DNA of 64,000 nucleotides from an uncultured virus (IMG/VR IMGVR_UViG_3300005083_000004) (IMGVR_UViG_3300005083_000004); one strand, 5' to 3'; shown: positions 25,702 to 53,408, counted from the first letter of the stretch. Notes: generated by a model from the sequence alone, not told the origin. Program-made: numbers and translations.

Positions 25702-26088
25702 ATCAAAAAAAAAAGAGGGTATTATTCCCTTTTTTTTTTAATTAAAATTAATTTTATTTTTTTCAAAAAAATCAAATTTCGAATATAAAAAAGGATAGTA
25801 TATAATTGCTATTTTCAAATATATGTAAATCAGAGTGTGAGAACACGCTGAGAAAANNNNNNNNNNNNNNNNNNNNNNNNNNNNNNNNNNNNNNNNNNNN
25901 NNNNNNNNNNNNNNNNNNNNNNNNNNNNNNNNNNGAGAACACGCTGAGAAAATCAATTAGCTAAAAATAATAAAATGAAGGAGATTTTAATCTCCTTCGT
26001 TTAGTTGATAAAGTCATTTACTCTATTACTGATATCAGAAGAAACAAAAATATTAAGTTTGAATACAGTAAATAAGGAGAAAATTAAT

Positions 26089-34403: not shown

Positions 34404-34474
34404 AACGCAATCCTTTATTTTGTATTTATTTTTCTATATATATAATNNAAAATAAATATGTAGGAGAATAAGAA

Positions 34475-35326: not shown

Positions 35327-35860
35327 ATGAATAAAATATATTTAACAAAAAATGGAATCATTGAAGAATCTATAGTAGATGGTCCAGGACTTAGAATGGT
35401 TATTTTTATGGCAGGATGCCCACATCAATGTGATGGATGTCATAATCCTACAAGTTGGGATATTACAAAAGGAATTGAATATCAAATAAATGATTTATTT
35501 GATATTATCCAATCCGAGTTCCATGAACCAAGTATATTATCAGGAATAACAATTTCTGGTGGTGAACCATTTATGCAGTATGAAGCATTATATGAATTAT
35601 TAAATAAAATTAAATTTATCAAAAGAGATGAGAAAATAAACATTTGGGTATATACAGGATATGTATTTGAAGAATTAATATCTATGGAAAAAATATATAC
35701 AGATATTTTAAAATATATTGATGTTTTAGTTGATGGAAAATATATTAAATCGAAATATATAGAGAAAAAATTAAAATGGATAGGTTCATCAAATCAAAGA
35801 ATAATAGATTTAAATAAAACATTTAAATTTGGAAAAATAGAATTACTTGATATAGAGTAG
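35327..35860 (+). CDS. nrdG: Anaerobic ribonucleotide reductase activating enzyme (radical SAM)
   Basis: SIVDGPGLR, GCPHQCDGCHNP, GITISGGEP, IWVYTGY, DVLVDGKY, GSSNQRII. Confidence 0.92.
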   Translation: MNKIYLTKNGIIEESIVDGPGLRMVIFMAGCPHQCDGCHNPTSWDITKGIEYQINDLFDIIQSEFHEPSILSGITISGGEPFMQYEALYELLNKIKFIKRDEKINIWVYTGYVFEELISMEKIYTDILKYIDVLVDGKYIKSKYIEKKLKWIGSSNQRIIDLNKTFKFGKIELLDIE

Positions 35861-37527: not shown

Positions 37528-37647
37528 ATTAAAAAAAAAGAGATTATTATAATCTCCTTTTTTTTTAATTTATTGATATAAAATATTTGCCATATCAATA
37601 CAACTCAATAAAAAAATATTAATATTATAAAGGAGGAATTGACATAT

Positions 37648-38430
37648 ATGAAATATATTGAAATTTATCATATAAATGATTACTCATTTGAAGACACAGT
37701 TGATAGTTTAAAACCGAGCTGTGCCATACGATATAATGTAAAATATGTAACAGTAATTCCAAATAAAACTCATGATGCAATATTAACAACTAATTTTTAT
37801 GAATGTGATGATTCAATTATTAACACAAAAGACAATGATGATATTAAGCCTGCAATATTAATGAATACTATTATGATTATTCCAACACAGTCAACAAATT
37901 TCAAACAAACTGAATTGATCAAACCATCATCTACAAATATTGAATTGGATATACCAAATGAATATTATCAAGATATTCAATCATATTTATTGAAAGTAAA
38001 AAGAACTGTATCATCAAGATTTGATAATGATGAGATTCAATTTAATATCGAATATTATGATAAACATATTAATCCTGTTCCTGAACAAGTTGTTCATTTA
38101 TGTCGAGATATATTGGTAGATAAATTACAAAGTAATGATATTGTTATTAAAGATTGTAAAGGATTAAATCAAACTATATTTTTTAATAAAATATCAGAAA
38201 ATGAGATATATTATAAAATGAATCAAATTGAAAATAACATTAAAAATTTCTTTCAATCAACTATGGATAATTTTGATAGTTTCAGTAGAACACTAGATAT
38301 GTTATTAATGTTATATAAGAATGATGTTAATAATAATCATGATCATGATATATCAAATATTATGAAAGATTATGATTCATTCATAAAATATATTGAATCA
38401 ATTCGTCAAGAATTACAAAATAATTTATAA
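37648..38430 (+). CDS. Hypothetical protein
   Basis: AAGGAGG RBS; start at TTG 37639 or ATG 37648. Confidence 0.65.
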   Translation: MKYIEIYHINDYSFEDTVDSLKPSCAIRYNVKYVTVIPNKTHDAILTTNFYECDDSIINTKDNDDIKPAILMNTIMIIPTQSTNFKQTELIKPSSTNIELDIPNEYYQDIQSYLLKVKRTVSSRFDNDEIQFNIEYYDKHINPVPEQVVHLCRDILVDKLQSNDIVIKDCKGLNQTIFFNKISENEIYYKMNQIENNIKNFFQSTMDNFDSFSRTLDMLLMLYKNDVNNNHDHDISNIMKDYDSFIKYIESIRQELQNNL

Positions 38431-38455
38431 ATTAATTTAATTATAGGAGATAATA

Positions 38456-40282
38456 ATGAAACTAAATAAAGTTACTATTACAAATAAAATATTTAAAGTT
38501 TTTACAAAAAACGAAGTTCCTATAAAATCTTTTGATTTATTATTAAACTTAAATAGAATTATACCTCAAGAGTATGTTATTGATAATGAATTAACTGAAT
38601 TAGATATTATTAAATTTGAAATACGTAATATATTTATGACAATTCATAGTACCGAAATTAGTAAATATTATGAATACTCTAACTATGAAGAAATTATGAA
38701 GTATTATGATGAACATACGATTGTTCCCGATTATTGGTTTATGTGCATTAGTCGGGCAATATCATATATGTGTCATAATCAAGATTATTATAAAGATATA
38801 TCCATATTGTGTATTTTCCCTCATAGTATTAATATATATTCAATTGATATGAAAGATTATTCAATCCGTTATGTTAAACAATTTGATGGTAATATTGATG
38901 ATATTTATAATCATAATGATTATTATATAGATTTTAATTTACTAAGTGAATACAACACACTTTTTACTTTACCAATATTTCATTTATATAAATATGCTGT
39001 TGATTTATATAATAAAATATGGACCAATGATAATATTCCAGTATTATCAGAAATGAAAAATTTTTTATATGATGAATGGAATGAATATCATAATGATATT
39101 TTCAGATATGAAAGTATTCATTTCAAAATGGATATAATAAAGAAAAATATTCACTGGATTAATGGTGTATTATTTGGATATTTTCAATTTGATTTTGATA
39201 TATTACGAACAATAGTATGGGAATCATTAGAGAATGAATTTGATGTAGAGATAGATGTTGAAAAAGAATATCAATCATATATAAATAATTCACCTGGAAA
39301 TTATATTTCATTCAAAATACCCATATCACAAAATCATGATGGATCATATATATTTTATGATTATAATCTTCCGATTTTATTTCATGCTGATACTGATATA
39401 TCATTTTTTAAAATATCGAATACTTATCTCAAAATCGGTGAAAAAATATATATTGAATATAATGGTATCTATTATGAAAAACAAGTTAAGAAAATAATAG
39501 ATGATCAAATAATATGGGAAAATCCTTTCATGATAACAATGATTGATAAAAATGATTTACCTGCTAAATATAATGATGATGTGCAAAATGTTATGGCACA
39601 AGGAATTGTTAAATATATATTACTATTTGGATCTCGAATAATAAATAATAGTGATAATTTCTTAAGAATGGTTTATAATAATATAATTAATGCTTTTCGT
39701 TTTGTAGATAAAGTAAAAAATGATCATTATCAAATGAACGATAGAATATATATGCATGACTTACAATTGTATATTGATAAGAATAAATATAATGATTCAA
39801 TCATATTACCAATTATAAAATCTGAAGATTTACGAATTGATTATTATTTAAAAGAAGAATTAAAAAAATATCAATCATTGGAAACATTTGTGTCAGATTT
39901 TAAAAAAAATGAACATACGATGAACTTATATTTTGATAACGATATATCTGCATTAGTAAAACAAATTATTCCATATAATGACAAAATTAACTGTTATAGA
40001 ATATTTGATAACACAACAGGAAATTTTTGTTATATATGTTTAAAACATGATAGTGATATAGAACAATATAGTGAATTATTAAGTGAAATGAATAATAATC
40101 ATCAATTTACTTTATCTAAAGAATGTGAATGTGATTCTTCATATATAATAGTTCCAAGAAATTATATTAGATTCAATGATATAATGTTGTATCAAAATTA
40201 TCATAATATTGATGAACAATTTTTGGGGAATAGATCATTTTATGAATTATTAGCTATTGATGATAATACAGATTTATTCTAA
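38456..40282 (+). CDS. Hypothetical protein upstream of the radical SAM gene
   Basis: 608 aa; AGGAG RBS; same orientation as the rSAM gene with a 24-nt gap. Confidence 0.7.
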   Translation: MKLNKVTITNKIFKVFTKNEVPIKSFDLLLNLNRIIPQEYVIDNELTELDIIKFEIRNIFMTIHSTEISKYYEYSNYEEIMKYYDEHTIVPDYWFMCISRAISYMCHNQDYYKDISILCIFPHSINIYSIDMKDYSIRYVKQFDGNIDDIYNHNDYYIDFNLLSEYNTLFTLPIFHLYKYAVDLYNKIWTNDNIPVLSEMKNFLYDEWNEYHNDIFRYESIHFKMDIIKKNIHWINGVLFGYFQFDFDILRTIVWESLENEFDVEIDVEKEYQSYINNSPGNYISFKIPISQNHDGSYIFYDYNLPILFHADTDISFFKISNTYLKIGEKIYIEYNGIYYEKQVKKIIDDQIIWENPFMITMIDKNDLPAKYNDDVQNVMAQGIVKYILLFGSRIINNSDNFLRMVYNNIINAFRFVDKVKNDHYQMNDRIYMHDLQLYIDKNKYNDSIILPIIKSEDLRIDYYLKEELKKYQSLETFVSDFKKNEHTMNLYFDNDISALVKQIIPYNDKINCYRIFDNTTGNFCYICLKHDSDIEQYSELLSEMNNNHQFTLSKECECDSSYIIVPRNYIRFNDIMLYQNYHNIDEQFLGNRSFYELLAIDDNTDLF

Positions 40283-40306
40283 ATAATTAAAAAAGGAGAT
40301 AATGTA

Positions 40307-43300
40307 ATGACGCATACTTTTAAATTTCAACTTGCAAAGGACGCAATAAACCACGATGATATATATAAAAATATAATAAAAGAAATAGTTTGTTATAAAA
40401 TATCTCATGTACTATCAAGACGACTAACTCAGATATATTCAATGTATTCGAATAACAAATCTCAGTTAACAATGCAGATGGTTAAGATTCGAGAACGAAA
40501 ACAAAAAGTTGTTTTATGTCATCATGAAAACACAATTATATATGCTAAGCAATTTATCTATAATATATTACATTTAAAATATCCAAACATAAGCATTGAT
40601 GATATAAGGATCAAAAGATGTATAGATACTGATCCAAATAAAGTATTGATAGAGGCAATAGTGATTAATGGAATAGATAGTGATATAAATATAGAAAGTA
40701 TCACTTCATTGATTAAATATAATCCAACATATGATGTTGTATTATCTCAAAATGAAACTATATCATATGGTCAAGAAGAAGCCGACGCAACTCCAAATAG
40801 ATTTCGATTAAATTTGAATGTATTACCAGATGATCATAGATGTATAACAACATTAAATGATGATAATGCCAATTATAAAGTTTCATTACGTGGCATCAGA
40901 GAATTTACATTCCAAGTTACTGAAGGATGTAATCTAAGATGTTTTACTGGAGATACTAAAATAAAAATTAGACAATTGATCAAGAAAGGTAGTGAATTAG
41001 AAGGAACAGTTGATAAATATGTATATCAGGAAATAGAAATTGGTAAATTAGTAAATAAATTTACAAATATTTTTAGTAATATAGAATCTGATGATTATCA
41101 ACTTCTCCTAAGAAAAATTAGATATACTCCAAATGGATATAAAGAGAAAATACTTGATGCATATCATGGTCAGAAAATAAAAGTATGGAAAAGATATCCA
41201 GAAGATGCACATTATGTTCCATATCCAAGTTTAGAAGATATTCAAATTCAGGAAAAATTTATTAAAGGTCTTGAAAGAGAATTAGAAGAAGATCTTGATA
41301 ATACTGAAGAAGGATATGAACATTATTTAGAAGAATCAGTATCAATGGATATATATGACCCTGATAATAGATATATTTATAATAAAGGATATTTCTTAAA
41401 ATATGATGGAGATTGGTATCAAATAGTAGAATGTTGGAAAGGATATAATATTGATGACATCGAAGTATATTCTACAGAAAACAGATATAAAAAATTATTA
41501 GCTGTTTCTAAGCAAATTAACAAAGATGCTATTAAACAGAATGGTGGATTATGGGCAATATATGTTAAAAATAAAAAAGATCCAATTTTTAAAGTTACAG
41601 GAAATCATGAAATAAGTGTTTATATTCGAGACGGAAATCCTGAAGATCAAACATTATGTGTGAAAAATATTATTGGACAAATGATGATTTATCATGATAT
41701 TGCAATGAAAGATATTAATAAAGATCTAGTCTATATAAAAGCAATTGTACCTATTCCAGAAGAAGATTGGGAACCGGTTTACAATATTGAAGTTGAAGAT
41801 GATCATACGTATTATGCTAATGANNNNNNGATACTAAAATTTTAATATCAAATACCAAAACAAAAGAAATTAAATACATTAATGTTGGTGATCGTATTCT
41901 TGGAATAAATGAAAATGATAAAACATGTGGCATAAGATTTGGAACGGTTACCCATGTATTTAAACGTAAAGCAAAATGTTTAAAGTTGATTCATGATGGA
42001 AAAGAAACGCTTGTAACCGAAGAACATCCATTTTTAACACAACGAGGATTTGTTAAAGTTAAAGATCTTAAAAAGTCTGATGTTTTATATAAGTATAATA
42101 TTGATATATACCAATATAATTATAACATTGGAGATGAATTAAAATGTATACCAATAACGGATTTTGAGATTATTAAAGATTTTACATCAAATGAAATTGA
42201 TGTTTACAATATTGAAACGGATTGTCATACCTATATCGCAAATGATTTATTGGTTCATAATTGTTATCAGACNNTGTAAAGTTACAAATTCAATGAAATT
42301 TAAAGATGCTAAAAAAGCGATTGATGAATTATTAAATGATAATTTTGAATATTTAAATTGTTCTATAACAAATGGATTAATTTTAGATTTTATTGGTGGA
42401 GATCCATTATTAGAAATTGATTTGATCGAGAAAATTTATGTATATTTCCTTCAAGAATCATATAGACTTGGACATTCAGCATTTTTATTCAATAGAATAT
42501 CATTATGTTCTAATGGATTATTATATTTCAATAAAAATGTTCAGAATTTCTTTACTAAGTATCACAATGAGATCTCTTTTAATATATCTATTGATGGAAA
42601 TCAATCTTTACATGATTCATGTCGAATTCAACCTAATGGTGAAGGATCATATGACATTGGAATTGCTGGAGTTCACCATGCACATAAAATACATGATATA
42701 GCACAAAGTTCAAAAATGACATTATCTCCAGCAAATATTCCATATTTATATGAATCCGTTATTGAATTAATAGGTAATAAATATTCACATGTGAATTTAA
42801 ATGTTGTATTTGAAAATGTATGGACAAGTAAAGATGCAAATGTATTGTTTCATCAACTAATTAAAATTGCAGATTATATTGTAAATGTAAAAATGGATCC
42901 GTTTTTCCATTTGTCAATATATCGACCATTATATGACGATTCTAAATTAACGATTGTAAATTGTGATGAAACATCAAGAATTATTAATTATACAGATAAA
43001 AGAGGATTGCTTAAAGAAGATGCATTTTTCTCTACATCAAATGCATGTGGTGGAAATGGAGCAATGCTTGCTTTAGATCCAAAAGGAGATTTTTTTCCAT
43101 GTATTAGATTAATGAATAGCTCCTTAAATAATGAACAAAAAGCTATAAAAATATGCAATGTTAATGAAATTGATAATTTTGAACAATCGATGGATATATT
43201 AACGAAAATGGCAAATATTACATGTACAACACAATCATCTGATATATGTATATCATGTCCATTTTTAAGTTCATGTGGATGGTGTACAGGGTACAATTAT

Positions 43301-43525
43301 CAAAAATTTGGGACTTTTAATAAAAGATGCACATATATATGTGAATGTATGAAAGCCGAAGTAGCAGCTTCATATTATTATTGGTTTATTTTCATAAAAA
43401 AATTCAATTCTGCATATTTTGGAAACCAACTCAAATTACCTAGGGTGGATTATTATTTACAATATAAAGATGTAGAATCATTTTTGTCTGAAGATGAATT
43501 TAATATATTAAAAAATCTCAAGTAA
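40307..43525 (+). CDS. Radical SAM/SPASM peptide maturase, CXXX-repeat target family (TIGR04115-like), with two inteins; split across three track ORFs by assembly Ns
   Basis: FTFQVTEGCNLR|...|CYQ...SMKFKDAKKAID, LDFIGGDPLLEIDLI, SNGLLY, ISIDG..LHDSCR..G.GSYD, CGGNGAMLALDPKGDFFPCIR, CISCP...CGWCTGYNY...KRCTYICE (SPASM). Confidence 0.85.
40940..41829 (+). mobile_element. Intein 1 in the rSAM CxxxCxxC motif (end hidden in N gap)
   Basis: CFTGDTKI right after GCNLR; block B KVTGNHEI; block F PVYNIEVEDDHTYYAN; no LAGLIDADG seen. Confidence 0.85.
41830..42261 (+). mobile_element. Intein 2 (mini-intein; first residues hidden in N gap)
   Basis: Frame from 41830 reads DTKILISNTKTKEIKYINVGDRILG...LVTEEHPFLT...VYNIETDCHTYIANDLLVHN followed by CYQ. 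Confidence 0.85.
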
Positions 43526-43576
43526 TGAATACTCTTCGACTTTTGATTAAAAATTAAAAAAAGAGAATTTATTATT

Positions 43577-45331
43577 ATGAATATTGGAATATTACATGAG
43601 ATCTTAAAACGTCAATTAGATGAAGAAAATAATTATTATGAAATTTATCCATATTTGATAGTATCAGATGTTTATTCATCAACTGATTTTTCCGAATCAT
43701 TATTAGATATAATTAATGATTTTCAAACTAGAGCTGATGATTTATATAATATACCGCCCCCTGTTACATCAGTTAATGGTAAAACAGGGGATGTTGTTCT
43801 TAATAAAAATGATGTTGGATTAAATAATGTAGATAATACGTCAGATTTAGATAAACCTGTATCTATAGCAACGCAAAATTTTATTAATAAATCTTTTACT
43901 GATGATTTTAATGATGAATTTAGAGAGATGGTCGATAATTTAGCAGCAATTCATAATCATTTTAGAAATCAGAATGTGATTGAAAATATAGAATATAATA
44001 TAAATTATTATGGAACTGACTATATTGATTATTCAATTAAAGCTCCAGATATTGGATATGATCCACATATGATGAATAAAGCCGATATTGGATTAGATGA
44101 TATTATTAATATAGATATCAGGGAAATGATTCATACAATAACATCAACTCATAATAATTTAGATATATTAACAACTTATTTACATCCTAATATAAAAGAA
44201 AAATTAGTATATATCAATGAAAAATCAGATGAATTACAAGAATTAATTATAGATTTCAAACCTGGAGATATTACATCATATATGATAGAACAAGCATTAA
44301 ATATACATCGTGAAGATCCATCTTCTCATAATACTATAGTATTGAAAATAAATGATCTTAAAGATACAATAAACAGATTAGAAGATGGAGAATATTGTGA
44401 AAATGATGAGTCTATTGAAAGAACTAAATATCGATTTCTAAGCACAATGGCGTTTGATGATTTTGATACATATAAGGATTATTATCCTTCCATGGCGTAT
44501 GTCGATAGTCTATCATTAAATGTAACCGGATTTGGTATTCAATTTATCAATCATATGGTATCAATATTTCCGTCAACTTCACAACTATATTTCAACTATA
44601 AGGATACATTATTTCAATATTATGATGAATCTACAGGTTCTTTGTCTACATTTAAATATATACTTTTATTAATGTTATATGATGATGCTGCTCAACATGA
44701 TATCAGCTGGTTTCAATCAAATTATCCGACTTTAAATGTATTTCATATGTATACTGAATCAATTAATGCTACAAGAATAGCGTATTGGAATAAATCAACA
44801 TTATATGATAAATTACTTTATAATAGAATTAGTTATAATTCTGATTTTTTTTATATGTCTGGAACCGGAGTAAATAATTATATTATCAATACTAATAAAT
44901 ATACAATTACAAATACTAATGATGGGACAGTATGGAGATATTATCCTGATGCTAGCGGGTATATATCATACGTTGTCCAAACTATTCCCGTAACTAATGG
45001 TATGGCATTTGTAACTTCTGGTTCTCGCATTATATATTATTATCTTTCTAATACAATGAAAATTCAATATTATGTTGATATGTATTTATATCAAAGAAAT
45101 CACATTAATAATACAACATCAACATTATCAGTTGAAGCAATTGAAAATATTGAATCATCATTTGGTACATTATCAACATTAAATATTGATTTATCTGGAT
45201 TAACGGTATTATCATTTAACCTTGATGAAAATGTAGTAAATAACAAACAAATTGATTATACATTAAATACAACAATTCCATCAACAAATATTACAAAATT
45301 AATATTTTCTATTATATCTAAATACTATTAA
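43577..45331 (+). CDS. Tail fibre-like protein (paralog of 49075-50817)
   Basis: VTSVNGKTGDVVLNKNDVGLNNVDNTSDLDKPVS, PHMMNKADIGL and His-spaced motifs typical of phage fibre shafts. Confidence 0.7.
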   Translation: MNIGILHEILKRQLDEENNYYEIYPYLIVSDVYSSTDFSESLLDIINDFQTRADDLYNIPPPVTSVNGKTGDVVLNKNDVGLNNVDNTSDLDKPVSIATQNFINKSFTDDFNDEFREMVDNLAAIHNHFRNQNVIENIEYNINYYGTDYIDYSIKAPDIGYDPHMMNKADIGLDDIINIDIREMIHTITSTHNNLDILTTYLHPNIKEKLVYINEKSDELQELIIDFKPGDITSYMIEQALNIHREDPSSHNTIVLKINDLKDTINRLEDGEYCENDESIERTKYRFLSTMAFDDFDTYKDYYPSMAYVDSLSLNVTGFGIQFINHMVSIFPSTSQLYFNYKDTLFQYYDESTGSLSTFKYILLLMLYDDAAQHDISWFQSNYPTLNVFHMYTESINATRIAYWNKSTLYDKLLYNRISYNSDFFYMSGTGVNNYIINTNKYTITNTNDGTVWRYYPDASGYISYVVQTIPVTNGMAFVTSGSRIIYYYLSNTMKIQYYVDMYLYQRNHINNTTSTLSVEAIENIESSFGTLSTLNIDLSGLTVLSFNLDENVVNNKQIDYTLNTTIPSTNITKLIFSIISKYY

Positions 45332-45366
45332 ATTAAAAAAATATTAAAATTATAGGAGAAAAAGTT

Positions 45367-45651
45367 ATGAATAAAATTACTGTATCAATTTCTGACGCAG
45401 GAATTTCGCCGGAACTATTCGATCAATTATATAATGAACACAAGACATATGTCATTATATCAACATATATCAATTCATTAAAATTATCTGAATTAATGTT
45501 AAAAAAAGATGAAGTTTATGAAATATTACAAAATTATTCAAAGATTAAAGATCAGATTACTGCGAATATTAAGAAAAAATATCCATCTTCAGTATCATGG
45601 GAGATTGACGATTTTAATCGAAAAGAAATAGGTATTGTTATTAATAATTAA
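45367..45651 (+). CDS. Small protein resembling the CXXX-repeat modification system accessory protein (TIGR04116-like)
   Basis: 94 aa, helical; C-terminal SWEIDDFNRKEI recalls that family's 'WEIDF..xEI' ending; AGGAG RBS; context. Confidence 0.45.
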   Translation: MNKITVSISDAGISPELFDQLYNEHKTYVIISTYINSLKLSELMLKKDEVYEILQNYSKIKDQITANIKKKYPSSVSWEIDDFNRKEIGIVINN

Positions 45652-45653
45652 TA

Positions 45654-45689
45654 AAAAATAATATCCCGATAATTCGGGATATTATTTTT
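45654..45689. terminator. Bidirectional terminator between the two convergent halves of the rSAM locus
   Basis: AAAAATAATATCCCGA-TAAT-TCGGGATATTATTTTT. Confidence 0.8.
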
Positions 45690-45848
45690 ATCGTCAAAAT
45701 ATTATATCATCTAATGTGATTTTGATATTGAAAAAACTGTTAACTATACCAATCATTTCTTCCATAAATTTTAATTCAAAAAACATACCATCTATATCTG
45801 ACATATGTTCACTCGCATTGATCATTTTATTATTAATATAATATTTTA

Positions 45849-47630
45849 TTAAATTCTCCATAATCTATACCACTCCTGTTCACCATTATTATTAGCTAAT
45901 GATCCGTCGTCAAATTCATTTCCTCTTGTCGATGGATGATCGCTATTTCCATAACCATATGTGTAGTTAAATAAATTCAAATGGTTATCAAGGGAATTAC
46001 CTACAATTCCGCCATTCCATGCAATACACGATTGTACACAAGTTAAGAAACACTTATAATCACAATTGGTACAATTGGTTGTACAAGCAATATCACAATA
46101 CACTGAACAATTTTCTCTACATCCCGCACACCTATCCAGGCATGTAACAATACATTGTTCTTTACATCCATAATTACATGATGTACAATATTCATCACAA
46201 CCCGAACATGCTAACATACATGTGAAAACACAATAATCTTCACATATTATCATACATAACTCTTCACACCCATCACCATCTTCAGTTGATGCGCAATGAT
46301 TATGACATACCGATATGCATTTACCAGTACACTCTGATTCGTCACAAGAATCTTCACATGTATTTTCACAATTATCTGTATCACATCCTGCCTGGCATAG
46401 TACTTCGCAACCGGATTGTGCACCTGCGCATCCACCATGTTCGCCATCTGCACATGATGCTGTGCAAGTATCATCACAAGTGCCTCCACAAGTATCATCA
46501 CAGGCATCATCACAAGTATCATCACAAGTATCATCACAGGTATCATCACAGGTATCATCACAAGTATCATCACAGGTATCATCACAAGTATCATCACAGG
46601 TATCATCACAAGTGCCTCCACAAGTATCATCACAACCGCTAACGCAGTTATCAGCACATTCTGCAGTACATTTAGTATTACAATTACCACCATCACATTT
46701 ATCTGCACACGTAGCTGTGCATGAACCACTACAACCAGATGAACATGAACCACTACAACTACCTGTGCATGAACCACTACAACCAGATGAACATGAACCA
46801 CTACAACCAGATGAACATGAACCTTTACAACCAGATGAACATGAACCAGTACAACCTCCTTGACAATTACCATCATCACATTTATCTGCACAATCTTCAC
46901 ATTCTTTCTTTTTAGCTACTTCTACTTTACATCCACCTGTACATGCTGAATCAAATATTAATTTGCCATCGTAACCTGCCCCACACGTCCAACTGGAACA
47001 TCCGAAACAATAATGTCCGACTTTGGAAGGACCAGCTGGAAGTGTATCTGTTGTTGTTCCACTATAGGATTTACACGGATTGCCACCGCAATAGGTTTTG
47101 CACAAGGTTGTTCTACATGAAGTTAGGCATTCCCAAAAGCAAGCATGACTGCCTAAATTGCCACATAACATATTATTGCTACCCTTACAATTAGAACAAC
47201 TGTCCATACAAAAACTTGTGCATGCACTATCTATACACGAATGACTATTCGTGCTATCTCCTGGAGGATCCCCACATTTTGCTACACAAGTATCTGTACA
47301 AAGAACAACAATAATATCGTTAGATGATCCATATACGTTATCTTTTCCAATTATTTTACACTCATCACTGCTACAACTAGATAGACAATCTGAACCACAA
47401 ATGTTATTACATGCGCTAGAACTTAGACATTTCGCACAATATATTTTATCATATCCTAAGCAAACGGCATAACAAGCCTGATTGCAGTCCCCAAAACAAT
47501 CAATAAGACAAGTAGAAATACATGTTCCAATGCAGTCGGTATAACATCCTCCATCACACTCTACAGTACAACCATATTTACAATATGTTTTTGTTCCTGG
47601 ATTACACGAATAATATCTTATATATGCCAT
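45849..47630 (-). CDS. Large Cys-rich CXXX-repeat protein (about 110 Cys), putative rSAM target
   Basis: Likely start MAYIRYY at 47630 after GGAGG; Cys every 4th residue over most of the length; CSGS/CSSG and CDDT arrays. Confidence 0.85.
   Translation of the reverse strand: MAYIRYYSCNPGTKTYCKYGCTVECDGGCYTDCIGTCISTCLIDCFGDCNQACYAVCLGYDKIYCAKCLSSSACNNICGSDCLSSCSSDECKIIGKDNVYGSSNDIIVVLCTDTCVAKCGDPPGDSTNSHSCIDSACTSFCMDSCSNCKGSNNMLCGNLGSHACFWECLTSCRTTLCKTYCGGNPCKSYSGTTTDTLPAGPSKVGHYCFGCSSWTCGAGYDGKLIFDSACTGGCKVEVAKKKECEDCADKCDDGNCQGGCTGSCSSGCKGSCSSGCSGSCSSGCSGSCTGSCSGSCSSGCSGSCTATCADKCDGGNCNTKCTAECADNCVSGCDDTCGGTCDDTCDDTCDDTCDDTCDDTCDDTCDDTCDDTCDDACDDTCGGTCDDTCTASCADGEHGGCAGAQSGCEVLCQAGCDTDNCENTCEDSCDESECTGKCISVCHNHCASTEDGDGCEELCMIICEDYCVFTCMLACSGCDEYCTSCNYGCKEQCIVTCLDRCAGCRENCSVYCDIACTTNCTNCDYKCFLTCVQSCIAWNGGIVGNSLDNHLNLFNYTYGYGNSDHPSTRGNEFDDGSLANNNGEQEWYRLWRI
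46467..46634 (-). repeat. 12-bp tandem array x14 encoding CDDT (with CGGT/CDDA variants)
   Basis: Plus-strand (A/G)GTATCATCACA units. Confidence 0.95.
46722..46853 (-). repeat. 12-bp-period array x11 encoding CSGS/CSSG/CTGS/CKGS
   Basis: TGAACCACTACA / ACCAGATGAACA units, flanked by a duplicated CADKCD(G/D)GNC segment (46681-46709, 46864-46892). Confidence 0.9.
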
Positions 47631-47671
47631 AATTATAACCTCCATTAAAATATATTATATTTAAAATTACA

Positions 47672-49072
47672 TTAATCATCATCATCATCATCAGGTTCAG
47701 GAGGTGGTGGAGCAGTATGGGCTTTACATCCAGTGTAGCAAGGTCCTGTACAATCATCCATACATGCTGGTACACAATCACCTTTACATGCGTTTTTACA
47801 TGTACCATAACAATTTCCTAGACATAATGTAGCATCTTTATTAAAACCACATTGTTCGAAACAACAATCTTTACAATGTTGCATACAATCAGTACCATGA
47901 TCATTCCCATCACTCGTCCAGACATTGCATTCATGTACACATGATTGTCCGCCGGGTTCAACACAAGCTTGCTTATGTTGAACATAAGCATCACAACTAG
48001 ATGCACACGTTGAACAATTTGCATCTGTTGAACCCGCGTGATAATCACAGACAGTTTGACAAGCATTGCCACCAGATCTTCCTCCACAAAACTCAAGACA
48101 ATCTGTAATACAAGTTGCTCCACATCCTAAATGGTCTCCAGGATAATTTATACATGTATATCCACAATCATCATCACATAAATATACACAACTTTCCATG
48201 CAAACTGTAAAACAGGTTATTGTACATAATCCTGTACAAGCAACATGACACGATGAATGTAACGCGTTATCATCACGTGTAGTTCCTCTAAATGTAACAT
48301 ATGTCGGATTATGGCTATTACGTTTTTCAGCGAGATCGTTTGGTCCCGGCTCATATATCCCTTCATGTGGACCTGCTGTATATGTCCAGTCTGTTTCATA
48401 TGGATAATCATAAGTTCGATACCATATCTCTTGGTAGTGATTAACTCCACGTGCAGGACTAGATACAACACATCGAGGCTGTTGTTTTAATATATCAACC
48501 CAATCTTCAATTGATTGAGTTTGTCGATATGCATTTGCAACTCTTGACCAATATTGTGGATCTGGATGTCCAGTTGGGTGTGGAGCTATTCCTACTGGAG
48601 CTGTGCTACCGACACCATAATATTTATCAATATCTATTATGTGACATAATCCATCGATGAGTGTTAAAAACTGTTCTACCGTCCAAGTTCGTTGTTCTTC
48701 TGGAGGTTTCCAAGTACCTAAAAATCTATCCATGCCATTCCAATAATAACATGTTCCACGGGGATCATATGGTAAATAACTATTATTTCCTGTCCATGGA
48801 TCATATGCGTTAACTGAACCTTGATTTATATGATTGCCATCTGAATCTGTAAATTGTTCACTTGCACTAGTATAGTCATAATAAGCAAATAATCCACCAG
48901 ATAAACTTTCCTCATCTGAACATCTTCTAGCATATTCAGTATCTAATTTTGCTCTAATACTATCCAAATATGATTTACTGATAGTATGTTGATTTGTCTG
49001 TAATGGAACAGCAAAATTTGTTGTTGTGTATGCATGACGATTAGGCATTAAGTTAGTATCAATATATGCCAT
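47672..49072 (-). CDS. Protein with a ~270-aa N-terminal domain and C-terminal CXXX-repeat region, putative rSAM target
   Basis: SSCHVACTGLCTITCFTVCMESCVYLC...CYGTCKNACKGDCVPACMDDCTGPCYTGC; ends PPPPEPDDDDDD; starts 2 nt after the fibre gene stop. Confidence 0.85.
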   Translation of the reverse strand: MAYIDTNLMPNRHAYTTTNFAVPLQTNQHTISKSYLDSIRAKLDTEYARRCSDEESLSGGLFAYYDYTSASEQFTDSDGNHINQGSVNAYDPWTGNNSYLPYDPRGTCYYWNGMDRFLGTWKPPEEQRTWTVEQFLTLIDGLCHIIDIDKYYGVGSTAPVGIAPHPTGHPDPQYWSRVANAYRQTQSIEDWVDILKQQPRCVVSSPARGVNHYQEIWYRTYDYPYETDWTYTAGPHEGIYEPGPNDLAEKRNSHNPTYVTFRGTTRDDNALHSSCHVACTGLCTITCFTVCMESCVYLCDDDCGYTCINYPGDHLGCGATCITDCLEFCGGRSGGNACQTVCDYHAGSTDANCSTCASSCDAYVQHKQACVEPGGQSCVHECNVWTSDGNDHGTDCMQHCKDCCFEQCGFNKDATLCLGNCYGTCKNACKGDCVPACMDDCTGPCYTGCKAHTAPPPPEPDDDDDD

Positions 49073-49074
49073 AC

Positions 49075-50817
49075 TTATTTCCTCCCATATATTATTAAAT
49101 TGATATAAAATGTTGAATTTATCGATATATTAGTTATATTTAATATAACTTGTGTTCCTGATATTGTTTCTGTGTGCTCAAATATTATATTTGAATTTGT
49201 TGTTAAATCAATATTCATTCCAGTTATACTAACAAAACAATCAGTGACTGTAGATAATGATGACGGAACGGTTGTTGATCCAGTCTCTGTTATAGTCATA
49301 GGATGTAATTCAGTAACCATTCCCATCATATTATAAGTAAATTGTAATGTATTATTTTTGAAATATTGTATGCATCTATTATTTGGATCTGTGACAAAAA
49401 TAAAACCTGTATTATTTAAAAAATTATATGATGTTATATCTGTAACCGGATTAACACTTGTATCAGCATTAAGATTAAAATCAACGGCTTTTAATGGTGT
49501 TCTAACAATTGATGAAGTAGAAACTGTAAATTGAATAAACCCGGATACTTGAGGATTTGATATTGTCATTGTATCACAAAAAATTATCGTATTTTTCGTT
49601 AATCCCATAGATAGAATATCCGCATTACTTGGTTCAGTTGTCTTAAATAAGAAATCAATTCCTGACGTATAATTATTATTTGCAATTATACTCGCTTGTT
49701 TTATTTTATTATAAAAATAAGATATCCTTGTTGTATCATAATCTTCACTGAATACAATTACATTACCATTTGTTGTTGTTGAGTCAGTAGATGATACTTC
49801 GATTATTGGTGTATTTTGAACTAAGTTAAATTCCGTACCGTTGCTGTATATATAATTATCGTAAAAATATATATAAGAATTATCTGGATTAGTACTGGAT
49901 GGTCTATCGAATATGACACCTTTTGATATACCTGAATCGCCGCCATTTAATATGCTATATAAATATCCCATTGATGGATAATGTATATCATCTATAATAA
50001 CCGGTGAGTCCATTGTAATCTTACTGGCTCTATTTTCATATCCAACAATAGATCCATAATGATAAATTATACTATCCATTGTGGAATGAAGTGTATCTAG
50101 ATCTGATAATATAGATGGATGTGATTCACCATCCAGATTATGTTCACTTATTTTATTTGAAATAATCGTATCGACATCAACATTTATGTTTCCCTCTAAA
50201 TTACTAAGCTGTCCACCTAAATTTGTTAGTTCATTCATCAATTCATCAATATTACTTTTGATAGTAGGATGAGCATCAACATCCATATTATGTGATTCTG
50301 GAACTGCAGAAAAACTATTCATACCAACCATTTTATTGATAGTTTCGATGATATCCATATTTTCAATTAGTTCTAATCCGATTTGTTTTTTTGTGACTAG
50401 GTGAGGATTATTATAATTTTCGACATGATTTAGAAAATCTGCTTTATCATTTTGAAAAGTTGTATAATACAATGTGGCAGTATCAAATGCTTGTTGTATA
50501 GCAATTCTTGTAGGATTTGATACAGGTTTATTTAAATCTGAAGTATTATCTACATTACTTAATCCGATATCAGCTTTAGTAATAATGACATTTCCATTTT
50601 TTTTACCATTAACAGAACTGACGGGGAATATTATATTTTTAGCATCTTCAATTTTATAATCTATCTCTTGAAGTGTGGATCTTAAAGTCTTATCTTTATT
50701 TATATCCATATATATATCTTCAAGCAACGCAACGGGATATACTTCATAATAGTCACCGTATATATTATCAATATCCAATCGTCGTTTCAATATTTCATGG
50801 ATACGTTTAACCAGCAT
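49075..50817 (-). CDS. Tail fibre-like protein (paralog of 43577-45331)
   Basis: HEILKRRLD...YEVYP, VSSVNGK..NVIITKADIGLSNVDNTSDLNKPVS, NPHLVTKKQIGL, HNMDVDAHP, HNLDGESHP. Confidence 0.7.
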   Translation of the reverse strand: MLVKRIHEILKRRLDIDNIYGDYYEVYPVALLEDIYMDINKDKTLRSTLQEIDYKIEDAKNIIFPVSSVNGKKNGNVIITKADIGLSNVDNTSDLNKPVSNPTRIAIQQAFDTATLYYTTFQNDKADFLNHVENYNNPHLVTKKQIGLELIENMDIIETINKMVGMNSFSAVPESHNMDVDAHPTIKSNIDELMNELTNLGGQLSNLEGNINVDVDTIISNKISEHNLDGESHPSILSDLDTLHSTMDSIIYHYGSIVGYENRASKITMDSPVIIDDIHYPSMGYLYSILNGGDSGISKGVIFDRPSSTNPDNSYIYFYDNYIYSNGTEFNLVQNTPIIEVSSTDSTTTNGNVIVFSEDYDTTRISYFYNKIKQASIIANNNYTSGIDFLFKTTEPSNADILSMGLTKNTIIFCDTMTISNPQVSGFIQFTVSTSSIVRTPLKAVDFNLNADTSVNPVTDITSYNFLNNTGFIFVTDPNNRCIQYFKNNTLQFTYNMMGMVTELHPMTITETGSTTVPSSLSTVTDCFVSITGMNIDLTTNSNIIFEHTETISGTQVILNITNISINSTFYINLIIYGRK

Positions 50818-50906
50818 ATATTTATAAACTCCTTTTAATTAATTTATAATTATTTTAAAAGTCGAACCAATAATATATATATGTATAAAGCATAAAAAAA
50901 GAGAGA

Positions 50907-51191
50907 TTAAATCTCTCTATTTTTTGTGTATTTTAAAGTATTAAAAATTTTATAAAAGTTTACACAGATATCAGTCGCCCAATCTTCCCATGAAATAATC
51001 ACTCGATTAATCGGATCACCTCTTTTTTCACAAATATCAAAGATAATTCGTTCTAATGAATTTACTCGATGTTGTTCATGTAAATAATTCATTATCATAT
51101 AATATTCTTGATTAATATGAAGATTCAAGTTTTGCATGGGACCATCATATATAGTCCCATTGCTGTAAATTGGAAAAATAATTTCTTTCAT
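50907..51191 (-). CDS. Hypothetical protein
   Basis: 94 aa; AAGGA RBS; AATTATATATTAT upstream. Confidence 0.6.
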   Translation of the reverse strand: MKEIIFPIYSNGTIYDGPMQNLNLHINQEYYMIMNYLHEQHRVNSLERIIFDICEKRGDPINRVIISWEDWATDICVNFYKIFNTLKYTKNREI

Positions 51192-51248
51192 TGTTTTATT
51201 TCCTTATAAAAGTATTTATTATAATTATATAATATATAATTCATTTAT

Positions 51249-53408
51249 TCAAAAGATAGTTGAATTATCATCATTATTATCATAATAAACAACATCATTC
51301 ATGAAATCGGTAAATGAATCCTCATGTTCAACTCGAACTAAATCTTTACTATCATTATGCAACATTCCAATTTTATTTAATATATTAATTTCATTATTTA
51401 ATTGATAATCAATATCTGATATCTCTGGTCGAAAGTAATCTGATGCATTTTGAAAATTATGTTCATTTAGAGCTTGTTCAAATCTTGTTTCAGGTTCATC
51501 TCCAGTAATTGGATGTGCACCTTTATTAAAATTCCATCGTAATAAATTATCACCGTGATAATACACCCACATGACCATGCTCCATGCCATCCACATATCA
51601 TCATGCTCACCTTTAGATGCTTCAATTCTACCAGTGTTCGTAATAATCAAATTCGATAAATCTTCTACCAGTGCTTTAGTATTAATTGTATCTCTATATG
51701 AATTAACATGTCGAATCCATATCTGTTGCATTTGGCTTCTAATTCTATTAGAAGTAGCAACACCATAATATTTTTTCAGTTGTGATGCTACTTCTGTTCC
51801 TGATGCAAATTTAATATTCTCACGAACATCTGCTTTTGTAGGATCCTCAGCATCAAGTGATGTATATAATTGATCGTCTAAATAAGTTCTTCTTAGATAT
51901 GCAATTAAAGATTCACCAGAGCTTCTTTTTTCTATAATTATTAATGAATTAGGAATCATTTTCATTATATCCATTATTATTTGAACTTGATCAGGCTCAT
52001 CCATATATGGAGATCTAAATTCAGCTGCAACTTTAAATGTTCTTGGGTCAACAATACAAATTGCTGTATTATCTCCTCCACTACCAGTAGCTGGGTCAAT
52101 TCCAATAAAATATACATTGTTTTTATCAAAAAATCCTACAACGGAATATGATAAATGTTTATATAAATCTAATCTATATTTATTCATTAATAACATACTT
52201 CCATCCGGATTTCTTTTATGTTCAAATATATATTTTATATCATCTTCATTAAATGGCGAATTTGGTCTGAAATCTAATCTCATTAACAATATATCTGTTA
52301 AAAATGATGCCATTGATCCTTTAGCTCTAGCAGCAGATAACATTTCTCGAGCCCATTTTTCATCTCTGCCAATTTGAGAATATGAATATTCGATATACAT
52401 AATCTTTGAATATCCATCACCATTTCTCAACATATATTCTTCAATTTCTTCATTTGTAGAATCATATAATTTTTCATCCCATCTTGGTAATCTTTTAATC
52501 CAATCCGTATTTTCTCTACCAGTCCTACAATCAGAAGTTAATGCTGGTGTAGATGTAAATATACGACATGCAGGAATTCCTAATTCTATTGCTTTCACCC
52601 TTGATTCAGAATATGCATATGATGATGCATCCATTATATCTAATAAATAATTAATCCATTCGGCTTCATCAAAATACATTATAGGAAGTGCACTACCACG
52701 ACCCATTGTTTTAGCAGCTGCAATTGAAGTTGCTTTACTATTTATTTTAACACTATTATTTGACACAGGATTTTTTATTGATAATACATTTGATACTTTT
52801 TTGTTTTCTGGATCCTTAACCATTTTAGATTTCTTTGCTTGTTGAATTAATGATTGTGGAGCTGAGTCAAATGACATATATTTTGGAAGTGCTCGTAAGA
52901 ATGATTTCATATATTCTAAGTTTTCTATTGTTTTTGCTTGATCATATGTGAACATTGCAAACTTAGAATTTCGTGTTCCAAAATTATAACTCCAACACAT
53001 TGGTCCAGCTAAAAAATTTGTAGTTTTATAATTACGACGAGATAAACATAATACATTATCAACATAATTATGGAATAACCAAAATTGTGCTGCAGCTCCT
53101 CGATGTAAATAAAGATGTACTTTTTGTCCACCTTCAAGAGGCATTCTCACAACTTCACGATAATAATACCATGGATTTAATCTACATTCAGTTAGAACTC
53201 TTACTGCCATATCTCTTGATATATTTGGATCATATGGATCAACTCCAAATAATGATAAATCTTTTAATTCTAACATGAAATGATTATTTTTTATTCCAAG
53301 AAATTGTAATTCATTACATGTATTAATAAATGATGTATTTGTTGATTTAGTTACATAATACCGATATTTTTGAGACTTTATATCGAACTCTTTAACAATA
53401 TCATTCAT
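51249..53408 (-). CDS. Terminase large subunit
   Basis: ECRLNPWYYYREVVR, Walker A-like SRRNYKTT, GRG...YFDEAEW, TSTP, nuclease IGIDPATGSGGD, GEHDDMWMA. Confidence 0.9.
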   Translation of the reverse strand: MNDIVKEFDIKSQKYRYYVTKSTNTSFINTCNELQFLGIKNNHFMLELKDLSLFGVDPYDPNISRDMAVRVLTECRLNPWYYYREVVRMPLEGGQKVHLYLHRGAAAQFWLFHNYVDNVLCLSRRNYKTTNFLAGPMCWSYNFGTRNSKFAMFTYDQAKTIENLEYMKSFLRALPKYMSFDSAPQSLIQQAKKSKMVKDPENKKVSNVLSIKNPVSNNSVKINSKATSIAAAKTMGRGSALPIMYFDEAEWINYLLDIMDASSYAYSESRVKAIELGIPACRIFTSTPALTSDCRTGRENTDWIKRLPRWDEKLYDSTNEEIEEYMLRNGDGYSKIMYIEYSYSQIGRDEKWAREMLSAARAKGSMASFLTDILLMRLDFRPNSPFNEDDIKYIFEHKRNPDGSMLLMNKYRLDLYKHLSYSVVGFFDKNNVYFIGIDPATGSGGDNTAICIVDPRTFKVAAEFRSPYMDEPDQVQIIMDIMKMIPNSLIIIEKRSSGESLIAYLRRTYLDDQLYTSLDAEDPTKADVRENIKFASGTEVASQLKKYYGVATSNRIRSQMQQIWIRHVNSYRDTINTKALVEDLSNLIITNTGRIEASKGEHDDMWMAWSMVMWVYYHGDNLLRWNFNKGAHPITGDEPETRFEQALNEHNFQNASDYFRPEISDIDYQLNNEINILNKIGMLHNDSKDLVRVEHEDSFTDFMNDVVYYDNNDDNSTIF

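Follow-up and report, generated by a model that had tools for sequence, protein, structure and literature searches.

Why would a phage carry a radical S-adenosylmethionine (rSAM) enzyme and two proteins crowded with cysteine in the midst of its tail-fibre genes? The question is raised by a locus in a stretch of 64,000 nucleotides (nt) from the uncultured virus IMGVR_UViG_3300005083_000004 (the whole stretch is hereafter the window), to which an earlier interpretation made from the DNA alone (the sequence-only reading) had drawn attention. The plus-strand unit of the locus comprises an rSAM/SPASM gene, fibre paralog A and a gene for a 94-amino acid (aa) protein, while the minus-strand unit comprises fibre paralog B and proteins of 466 and 598 aa that bear long arrays of CXXX repeats (Cys followed by three residues). 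As observed in its gene content, enzyme family, target homology and gene linkage, the system is a real, widespread and uncharacterised phage variant of the CXXX-repeat rSAM kind. There is about an even chance that the window holds a phage-borne variant of the CXXX-repeat rSAM maturation system that has been built into the tail-fibre cluster of a jumbo phage with AT-rich DNA and an anaerobic host.

The C-terminal part of the enzyme (42275–43525) was matched by 23 NCBIfam models, the best of which was TIGR04115 (E 4.4e-82, 276.4 bits), named by NCBIfam "radical SAM peptide maturase, CXXX-repeat target family". The second-best family was PapB (NF047865; 107 bits, cutoff 340), which scored 150 bits for the intact relative in L001 (related loci are cited by such numbers), and weaker matches included QhpD (TIGR03906, 54 bits), the SCIFF maturase (TIGR03974, 49.7 bits) and the anaerobic sulfatase maturase (31 bits). 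The SPASM model TIGR04085 scored 25.4 bits, just short of its cutoff of 27, and seven Cys in the SPASM half are invariant in the rSAM alignment (C258, C276, C325, C328, C334, C337 and C356). The enzyme also matches phrog_1802 (E 2.6e-41). In a profile search with the window enzyme and 11 homologs, the nearest solved chain was PDB 5wgg (E 6.3e-29), for which the database label is only 'Radical SAM domain protein' and which we take to be CteB, the thioether-forming SCIFF maturase of Clostridium thermocellum. Relatives of ~600 aa consist of an extension of ~190 aa and the core, and the 207-aa N-terminal extension in the window has 19–22% identity to seven jumbo-phage extensions. This extension had no match in Pfam, PHROG or NCBIfam and only sub-threshold matches in the ESM Atlas; its alignment to the family of small proteins found in related loci reached a probability of 9.6% in hhalign, and a complex prediction for the extension with the leader-like region of the target scored 0.01.

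The sequence-only reading implied a single interruption of the rSAM gene, yet two Hint modules were found (40928–42264), three residues apart and each directly before a cluster-ligating Cys of the CX3CX2C motif. Their boundaries were set by comparison with the intein-free relative P0001 and the intein-bearing relative P0073. Module 1 is inserted before Cys2, starts with Cys and has its C-terminal end masked by a run of N; its intein C-terminal region matches TIGR01443 (17.5 bits, cutoff 15.6) and, only weakly, Pfam Intein_splicing (E 0.2), and the same insertion site is filled in L005, L006 and L009. Module 2 ends in His-Asn before Cys3, matches PF07591 (PT-HINT; 29.6 bits, cutoff 27.7) and has 37% identity (E 5e-14) to the same-site intein of P0073. 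The features that define inteins are a Hint domain, terminal His-Asn followed by Cys (seen here in module 2) and insertion at a conserved site, all of them present here. Cys1 and Cys3 are readable on the flanks of the two modules. Because both inteins precede Cys residues of CX3CX2C, splicing must occur twice before the enzyme has its cluster ligands, and it could gate rSAM activity. Relatives use one or the other Hint site, and the 1083-aa enzyme of L005 may also hold two.

The putative targets share a strict spacing of Cys. Successive Cys stand exactly four positions apart in 79 of the 109 gaps of the 598-aa protein (110 Cys) and in 24 of the 38 gaps of the 466-aa protein (39 Cys); the repeat region is 21% Cys, and many Asp, Thr and Ser occur within the window repeats. 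A hidden Markov model (HMM) of the N-domain, built from Cys-rich neighbours of the enzyme in related loci, matched the 466-aa protein alone among the 101 open reading frames (ORFs) of the window (E 6.5e-13). This N-domain has 25–29% identity to eight jumbo-phage N-domains, with shared blocks that include the start of the repeat array and Cys-x2-Ala-Cys-Thr-Gly-Leu-Cys. The Cys regions of nine jumbo-phage proteins can be aligned in register with the 598-aa protein (27–35% identity); the resulting alignment of 10 proteins has 64 invariant columns, of which 57 are Cys, and a C-terminal tail in common. Judged by these alignments, the Cys proteins are homologous across loci, not merely Cys-rich or of low complexity. 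A word-based homolog search with the 466-aa N-domain returned only itself, and a profile search with the long N-domain alignment returned 28 representatives at E ≤ 0.001, so that the long form of the N-domain belongs to a small family. In a Pfam scan of five large CXXX proteins and their neighbours, no match fell on the CXXX proteins, and the AlphaFold2 models were unusable (mean predicted local distance difference test score, pLDDT, of 34.9 for the 466-aa N-domain and 34.7 for the 598-aa protein).

In the jumbo-phage relatives, one protein of 770–1072 aa spans both the 466- and the 598-aa parts, and by this homology the two window proteins are a split version of one target. The split, together with frame shifts across both N runs inside the rSAM gene (41824–41829 and 42273–42274), might suggest a decayed, non-working copy in which inteins and frame changes have broken the enzyme and the target lies in two ORFs of different frames. 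Such decay is very improbable: all of the pieces are long open frames with catalytic and SPASM residues conserved, the intein sites are common to relatives, and the target of L004 has been split independently (551 and 421 aa). Frame changes located exactly at the N runs are most simply gaps in the record, and their coincidence implies that the N runs are not of true length. The gene for the 598-aa protein also contains in-frame tandem DNA repeats (period 12, 14.2 copies, 46465–46635; period 24, 5.7 copies, 46720–46856), which could let the repeat number vary.

The pairing of enzyme and target extends well beyond the window. A word-based protein search found 339 enzyme relatives, and the best 120 were mostly ~600 aa, many on contigs of 225–293 kilobases (kb). 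An alignment-based pattern scan of viral contigs gave at least 438 confirmed stretches, of which the best 80 were examined, and a scan of one-genome-per-species bacterial contigs gave 141, of which the best 79 loci were examined; a single-protein scan of the viral contigs returned no match. The bacterial-genome matches were mostly from anaerobic Clostridia, with some Ignavibacteria and Bacteroidales, and prophage versions are present in cultured Clostridia; cultured carriers are Desnuesiella massiliensis (L106), Neglectibacter timonensis (L093), Anaerolentibacter hominis (L103), Gemmiger formicilis (L158) and Anaerobacterium chartisolvens (L131). A Cys-rich ORF, defined by at least 20 Cys at a content of at least 7%, lay no more than 5 kb from the rSAM gene in 70 of the 80 viral loci (65 on the same strand within 1 kb) and in 50 of the 79 bacterial-genome loci (46 on the same strand within 1 kb). 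The N-domain HMM, built without any of the 79 genome loci, matched Cys ORFs in 37 of them. These sequence associations make it probable that the rSAM enzyme acts on the CXXX proteins. Targets in the viral loci range from 92 to 1072 aa (median 271), and the sequence-only reading, which described the substrates as far larger than those of peptides that are made on the ribosome and modified after translation (RiPPs), was right for the phage clade in general. Two gene orders recur: a tail or fibre gene, an N-domain and CXXX protein, a ~100-aa protein and a ~440-aa rSAM enzyme (or with the CXXX gene after the enzyme), and, in jumbo phages, a fibre-like gene, a ~600–770-aa rSAM enzyme, a 770–1072-aa CXXX protein and a ~90-aa protein.

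These relationships are mirrored in the phylogeny of the enzyme. The tree (FastTree, 86 rows) retained at random 45 of the 94 rows with mid-sized targets and dropped duplicates and rSAM ORFs of <370 aa. The window enzyme groups with those of jumbo phages (11 rows, support 99), in a clade nested within a larger one whose members have large CXXX proteins as partners (54 rows, support 99); a distinct clade unites the enzymes that accompany short Cys peptides (25 rows, support 100). Given its long branch, the exact placement of the window enzyme is less sure. Among 50,697 phage records, close relatives occurred only in uncultured "Bacteriophage sp." entries (closest 34–35% identity), and the isolates in that set yielded only distant rSAM genes of the type found in phage SPN3US. 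The latter were rejected as members of the same system, having 22–23% identity and no Cys-rich neighbours; in Salmonella phage SPN3US itself (L161, 135174–146166), two such genes form another pair within the tail region of a jumbo phage, with an endolysin, a tail assembly chaperone and a DUF4376 protein encoded nearby.

Variation among the loci is considerable. Further phrog_1802 rSAM genes lie beside the CXXX module in L004 (7321–9275) and L080 (15351–16565), and L080 has three CXXX proteins. A separate subfamily found in Clostridia and relatives (L134, L136, L137, L142, L145, L156 and others) has rSAM enzymes of ~720–730 aa followed by Cys-rich peptides of 85–94 aa, along with genes for proteins of 550–770 aa, and resembles an ordinary RiPP cluster. 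Ignavibacteria-type loci have several CXXX proteins of 185–216 aa and a TIGR04119 maturase (L122, 247.9 bits). The 'middle' genes of prophage modules (~145–220 aa) belong to several unrelated groups, and hhalign gave no likeness of the three largest groups (144–204 aa) to the N-terminal extension or to the small-protein family.

Linkage to tail genes was scored in 30 non-redundant loci (rSAM enzymes of <60% identity) with complete flanks, taking the two nearest ORFs of at least 150 aa on each side of the module and PHROG 'tail' matches at E ≤ 1e-6. A tail match was present among the four neighbours in 20 of the 30 loci, a raw count given without a background from random genes. The synteny of rSAM, CXXX and fibre genes that the sequence-only reading had suggested looking for does recur in other phages and prophages. 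Of the outcomes that it named as refuting, two were examined, the absence of a TIGR04115 match and the absence of linkage with fibre genes elsewhere; neither came about, and its interpretation is partly supported. For example, the order in L106 is baseplate wedge, tail protein, tail fibre, CXXX protein, 185-aa protein, small protein, rSAM enzyme, holin and endolysin; L093 has a tail fibre downstream and baseplate hub and wedge genes upstream, L037 has an Mtd_N/tail-fibre-repeat protein directly upstream, and collagen-like minor tail PHROGs lie close to one of the prophage modules. The adjoining upstream gene shares the strand of the module in 21 loci (gap of ≤30 nt in 15) and the downstream one in 28 (gap of ≤30 nt in 18), and the module is packed into the neighbouring operon. 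The difference in GC content between rSAM genes and their flanks has a median of -0.008 and exceeds 0.05 in 6 of the 30 loci, across loci that range in GC content from 0.29 to 0.65.

Within the window, fibres A and B are paralogous (28% identity, E 7e-33) and match 15 and 20 PHROG families, respectively, mostly labelled tail fibre or minor tail. The matches of fibre A cover residues 54–127, with the best E of 1e-12 going to an unannotated family and the best tail-labelled match to phrog_13892 (minor tail protein, E 2.6e-12); those of fibre B are labelled tail collar fibre, minor tail and tail fibre (best E 3e-11). All are confined to residues ~47–200, mainly to one conserved N-proximal motif, and neither fibre had a match in Pfam. 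As tail-fibre assembly chaperones are usually encoded after the tail fibre gene, the position of the CXXX genes could suit a role for the CXXX proteins and the enzyme as assembly factors, a chaperone-like scaffold for the fibres that is absent from the finished particle, and distant rSAM genes do occur near a tail assembly chaperone in SPN3US-type phages. That role is improbable, since proteins of up to 1072 aa with register-conserved ladders of Cys are unlike known fibre chaperones. Additionally, the translations of the two fibres contain only 1–2 Cys, which makes the fibres unlikely substrates of the enzyme.

The 94-aa protein is a probable small accessory protein of the CXXX system, on the strength of predicted structure. 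Its ESM Atlas model (pLDDT 0.82) resembles a cluster of 92-aa proteins named 'CXXX repeat peptide modification system protein' (template modelling score, TM, of 0.63), two viral clusters of 93 and 97 aa (TM 0.77 and 0.69) and part of a viral cluster of 578-aa CXXX-family rSAM enzymes (TM 0.52). No family match was found for this ORF in Pfam, PHROG or NCBIfam, including TIGR04116 at E ≤ 10, a search that the sequence-only reading had put forward; a homolog of the small protein in L106 scored 16.9 bits against TIGR04116, under its cutoff of 50.

Taken as a working mechanism, the two inteins would splice out and restore CX3CX2C to give an active rSAM/SPASM enzyme. This enzyme, probably with the 94-aa accessory, would recognise the leader-like N-domain of the 466-aa protein and modify Cys of the CXXX arrays in that protein and in the 598-aa one. 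The formation of Cys-to-carbon thioether cross-links, as in the nearest characterised relatives, would be the most likely chemistry, yielding a covalently stapled rod or appendage that is insensitive to reduction, produced together with the fibre paralogs and probably attached to or beside them. The thioether chemistry of those relatives is background knowledge, apart from the family names of NCBIfam, and by this analogy the window enzyme may form thioethers, with the chances for and against evenly balanced. Alternatively, the Cys arrays may bind metal or iron-sulfur clusters, while the enzyme performs other chemistry, for instance an oxidation like that of anaerobic sulfatase maturases, or has another substrate. 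The density of Cys in the repeat region and the weak sulfatase maturase match would fit such a role, but the nearest characterised families (PapB, SCIFF and 5wgg) are thioether-forming and the conserved association with a leader-like domain points to the target itself being processed by the enzyme, so that metal binding has a low probability.

The chance that the product is a virion appendage is about even. The targets of L002, L012 and L078 have a non-Cys C-terminal domain past the repeat array, and in sequence the succession of N-domain, repeat rod and C-terminal domain suits an anchor-shaft-tip layout. It is possible, if doubtful, that in many phages of anaerobes the shaft of a tail appendage is a ladder of rSAM-installed thioether rings, one per CXXX unit and up to ~150 for the pair of window proteins.

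Several observations weigh against an enzyme of the CXXX family working on a tail structure. The sequence-only reading had proposed a search for TIGR04115, and while this is indeed the best family, the window enzyme lies under its curated cutoff (276.4 against 350 bits, with the C-terminal part lacking the first 27 profile positions), as does the intact L001 relative (300.6 bits); Cys2 of CX3CX2C is hidden in the stretch with the N run. The search it proposed for the 18-residue repeat model TIGR04114 failed, with no match to the 466- or the 598-aa protein even at E ≤ 10; the target of L001 scored 21.3 bits (cutoff 20). The 598-aa protein is without a leader-like domain. The 94-aa ORF is the top-ranked of the 101 window ORFs for the small-protein HMM, yet with a weak E of 0.015, and its hhalign comparison with that family is similarly weak (E 0.01). 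The fibre label rests on a motif of 40–60 residues. Among the 30 scored loci, 10 have no tail gene among the four neighbours and five have no phage signal at all (L034, L038, L070, L122 and L128), and in the L038 group (L038, L067–L072) the CXXX module lies outside the tail region, beside a peptide deformylase and an SSB-like gene. Lysis genes are among the four flanking ORFs in 11 of the 30 loci, and the slot between tail fibres and lysis genes is the classic place for prophage cargo (morons).

It may be, then, that the module is cargo which merely occupies this slot, and that the enzyme matures the CXXX proteins into a non-virion product, such as a polymer that is released or stays bound to the cell, a precursor holding the cores of many small peptides, or a protein directed against the host or competitors. 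The flanking genes described above would be expected of such cargo, and, among relatives, those that encode short Cys peptides ahead of large genes resemble ordinary RiPP clusters. We consider cargo fairly unlikely. The phage-type module, in which neither a peptidase nor an exporter was seen, is packed closely against the adjoining late genes and is similar to them in composition. The module is kept in jumbo phages, the fibre-to-target junction in the window is 2 nt, and several targets have the three-part layout that suits an appendage.

It should be noted that the NCBIfam CXXX system (TIGR04114, TIGR04115, TIGR04116 and TIGR04119) is defined bioinformatically, and no experimental paper on it was found in a literature search. 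The phage system resembles it in the best-matching enzyme family, in the placement of Cys at every fourth residue and in a small accessory with the same predicted fold. Unlike that system, the window enzyme is under the family cutoff and in a separate clade, the phage targets are proteins of 92–1072 aa with a conserved N-domain as opposed to peptides of ~90 aa, and the module has a tail context, with a fused extension of ~190 aa and inteins in the jumbo-phage versions. The second maturase, TIGR04119, was not seen in phage-type loci and was found only in the Ignavibacteria-type L122; the search for it that the sequence-only reading had called for produced no separate gene among the 11 ORFs of 37639–53408, where the NCBIfam scan returned only a 15.5-bit stretch inside the rSAM gene. 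The combination of clade, target size and architecture, lack of a second maturase, tail context, extension and two inteins sets the phage system apart from that of NCBIfam.

Characterised systems offer partial parallels. PapB, of the freyrasin ranthipeptide system, forms thioethers in Cys-X3-Asp motifs and is likewise a SPASM rSAM enzyme acting on repeated Cys motifs with three-residue spacers, and it is the second-best NCBIfam family. In contrast, the window enzyme is far under the PapB cutoff, its substrates of 466 and 598 aa are not short leader-core peptides, and the residue after the three-residue spacer in the window targets is Cys. SCIFF maturases are related through 5wgg and TIGR03974, distantly, and their targets are peptides of ~45 aa with six Cys. 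QhpD installs Cys-Asp/Glu thioethers within a subunit (QhpC) of a working protein, quinohemoprotein amine dehydrogenase, which provides a precedent for rSAM thioether staples in a functional protein and not a secreted peptide. The match to QhpD is weak, and QhpD makes three cross-links in one small subunit, as compared to up to ~150 Cys here, and has no phage context. Among virions, the isopeptide chainmail of the HK97 capsid is a covalently reinforced part, and collagen-like fibres are repeat-based tail fibres; these share the idea of covalent stabilisation or of a low-complexity repeat shaft, but are autocatalytic or unmodified. We know of no dedicated radical enzyme for a virion protein, and a full-text literature search, with subscription journals outside its coverage, yielded no account of a phage tail system with CXXX proteins and an rSAM enzyme.

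A structural role, if proven, would be categorically new virion biology. Should the CXXX proteins be part of the virion, radical SAM chemistry would enter phage particle assembly and RiPP-type enzymes would act on proteins of 200–1000 residues. Should the thioether ladder also exist, a structural protein of a virion would for the first time be seen to be cross-linked by an enzyme, and the ladder would be a protein material of a new kind that needs no disulfides for rigidity and withstands reductants and gut proteases, produced by a jumbo-phage enzyme gated by two inteins on its own iron-sulfur ligands. Inteins placed on adjacent cluster-ligating Cys are a neat case of site choice and of possible conditional activation. 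The proposed function would account for a gene set that occurs in hundreds of contigs from gut and anaerobe phages (at least 438 viral and 141 bacterial stretches), and prophage loci of this type may now be counted by genome-mining tools as peptide natural-product clusters, which would be misleading.

The features of the locus are collected in the table.

Table. Coordinates of the rSAM, CXXX and fibre genes and associated features in the window
Feature	Coordinates	Strand	Basis or remark
rSAM gene pieces (ORFs)	40307–41845, 41986–42279, 42164–43525	+	
rSAM N-terminal extension, 207 aa	40307..40927	+	Feature of the jumbo-phage clade
Start of CX3CX2C motif (Cys1-Asn-Leu-Arg), last extein residues before Hint module 1	40928..40939	+	Comparison with intein-free relative P0001
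Hint (intein) module 1, ≥294 aa	40940..41823	+	TIGR01443
Hint (mini-intein) module 2, 144 aa readable	41830..42261	+	PF07591
rSAM/SPASM core (C-extein)	42262..43525	+	TIGR04115
Fibre-like paralog A, 584 aa	43577..45331	+	PHROG matches; paralog of B
94-aa protein, probable small CXXX accessory	45367..45651	+	ESM Atlas fold likeness
Terminator-like bidirectional hairpin between convergent units	45654..45689	.	Stem-loop
598-aa CXXX-repeat protein, 110 Cys (593 aa from second Met)	45849..47645	-	C-terminal half of split target
466-aa protein, leader-like N-domain and CXXX repeats, 39 Cys	47672..49072	-	N-terminal half of split target
Fibre-like paralog B, 580 aa	49075..50817	-	PHROG matches; paralog of A
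Terminator-like hairpin between upstream 94-aa ORF and fibre B	50900..50918	.	

The sequence-only reading had described this layout accurately. Its two convergent units do meet at one hairpin (45654–45689), in which a perfect stem of 16 bp encloses a loop of 4 nt, preceded by a run of A and followed by a run of T; its 466-aa protein begins 2 nt past the stop of fibre B, with which the ORF coordinates agree; and its protein of ~593 aa with about 110 Cys corresponds to the 598-aa ORF, in which 110 were counted. The hairpin begins 3 nt past the stop of the 94-aa gene, yet lies ~160 nt from that of the 598-aa protein.

The surrounding genes are consistent with a jumbo phage. The window is AT-rich (GC content of ~21–38% in 2-kb bins), and its large terminase (51249–53408, minus strand) has 27–30% identity to the terminases of Staphylococcus S6-like, Bacillus and phiKZ-like jumbo phages. 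Other genes encode a tail sheath, an RNA polymerase beta-like subunit, topoisomerase II, endolysins and a GroEL-like protein. In a protein database, the 466-aa protein is assigned to a contig of 180,450 bases. An NrdG-like anaerobic ribonucleotide reductase activating protein (35327–35860, plus strand; phrog_626, E 8.6e-45) points to an anaerobic host and is the second radical SAM enzyme of the window. In total, the window has four N runs, the two outside the rSAM gene being at 25857–25934 and 34447–34448.

Two further ORFs deserve mention. A second 94-aa ORF (50907–51191, minus strand) lies upstream of fibre B and is cut off from it by the hairpin at 50900–50918; comparisons that included hhalign gave no likeness to the 94-aa ORF at 45367 or to the accessory small-protein families, and this ORF probably belongs to the terminase unit. 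An 875-aa ORF (3135–5762, minus strand) has a DnaB-like helicase match at residues 616–840 and, over residues 228–593, matches to PHROGs labelled terminase, primase and helicase loader, and may be another interrupted or fused replication gene.

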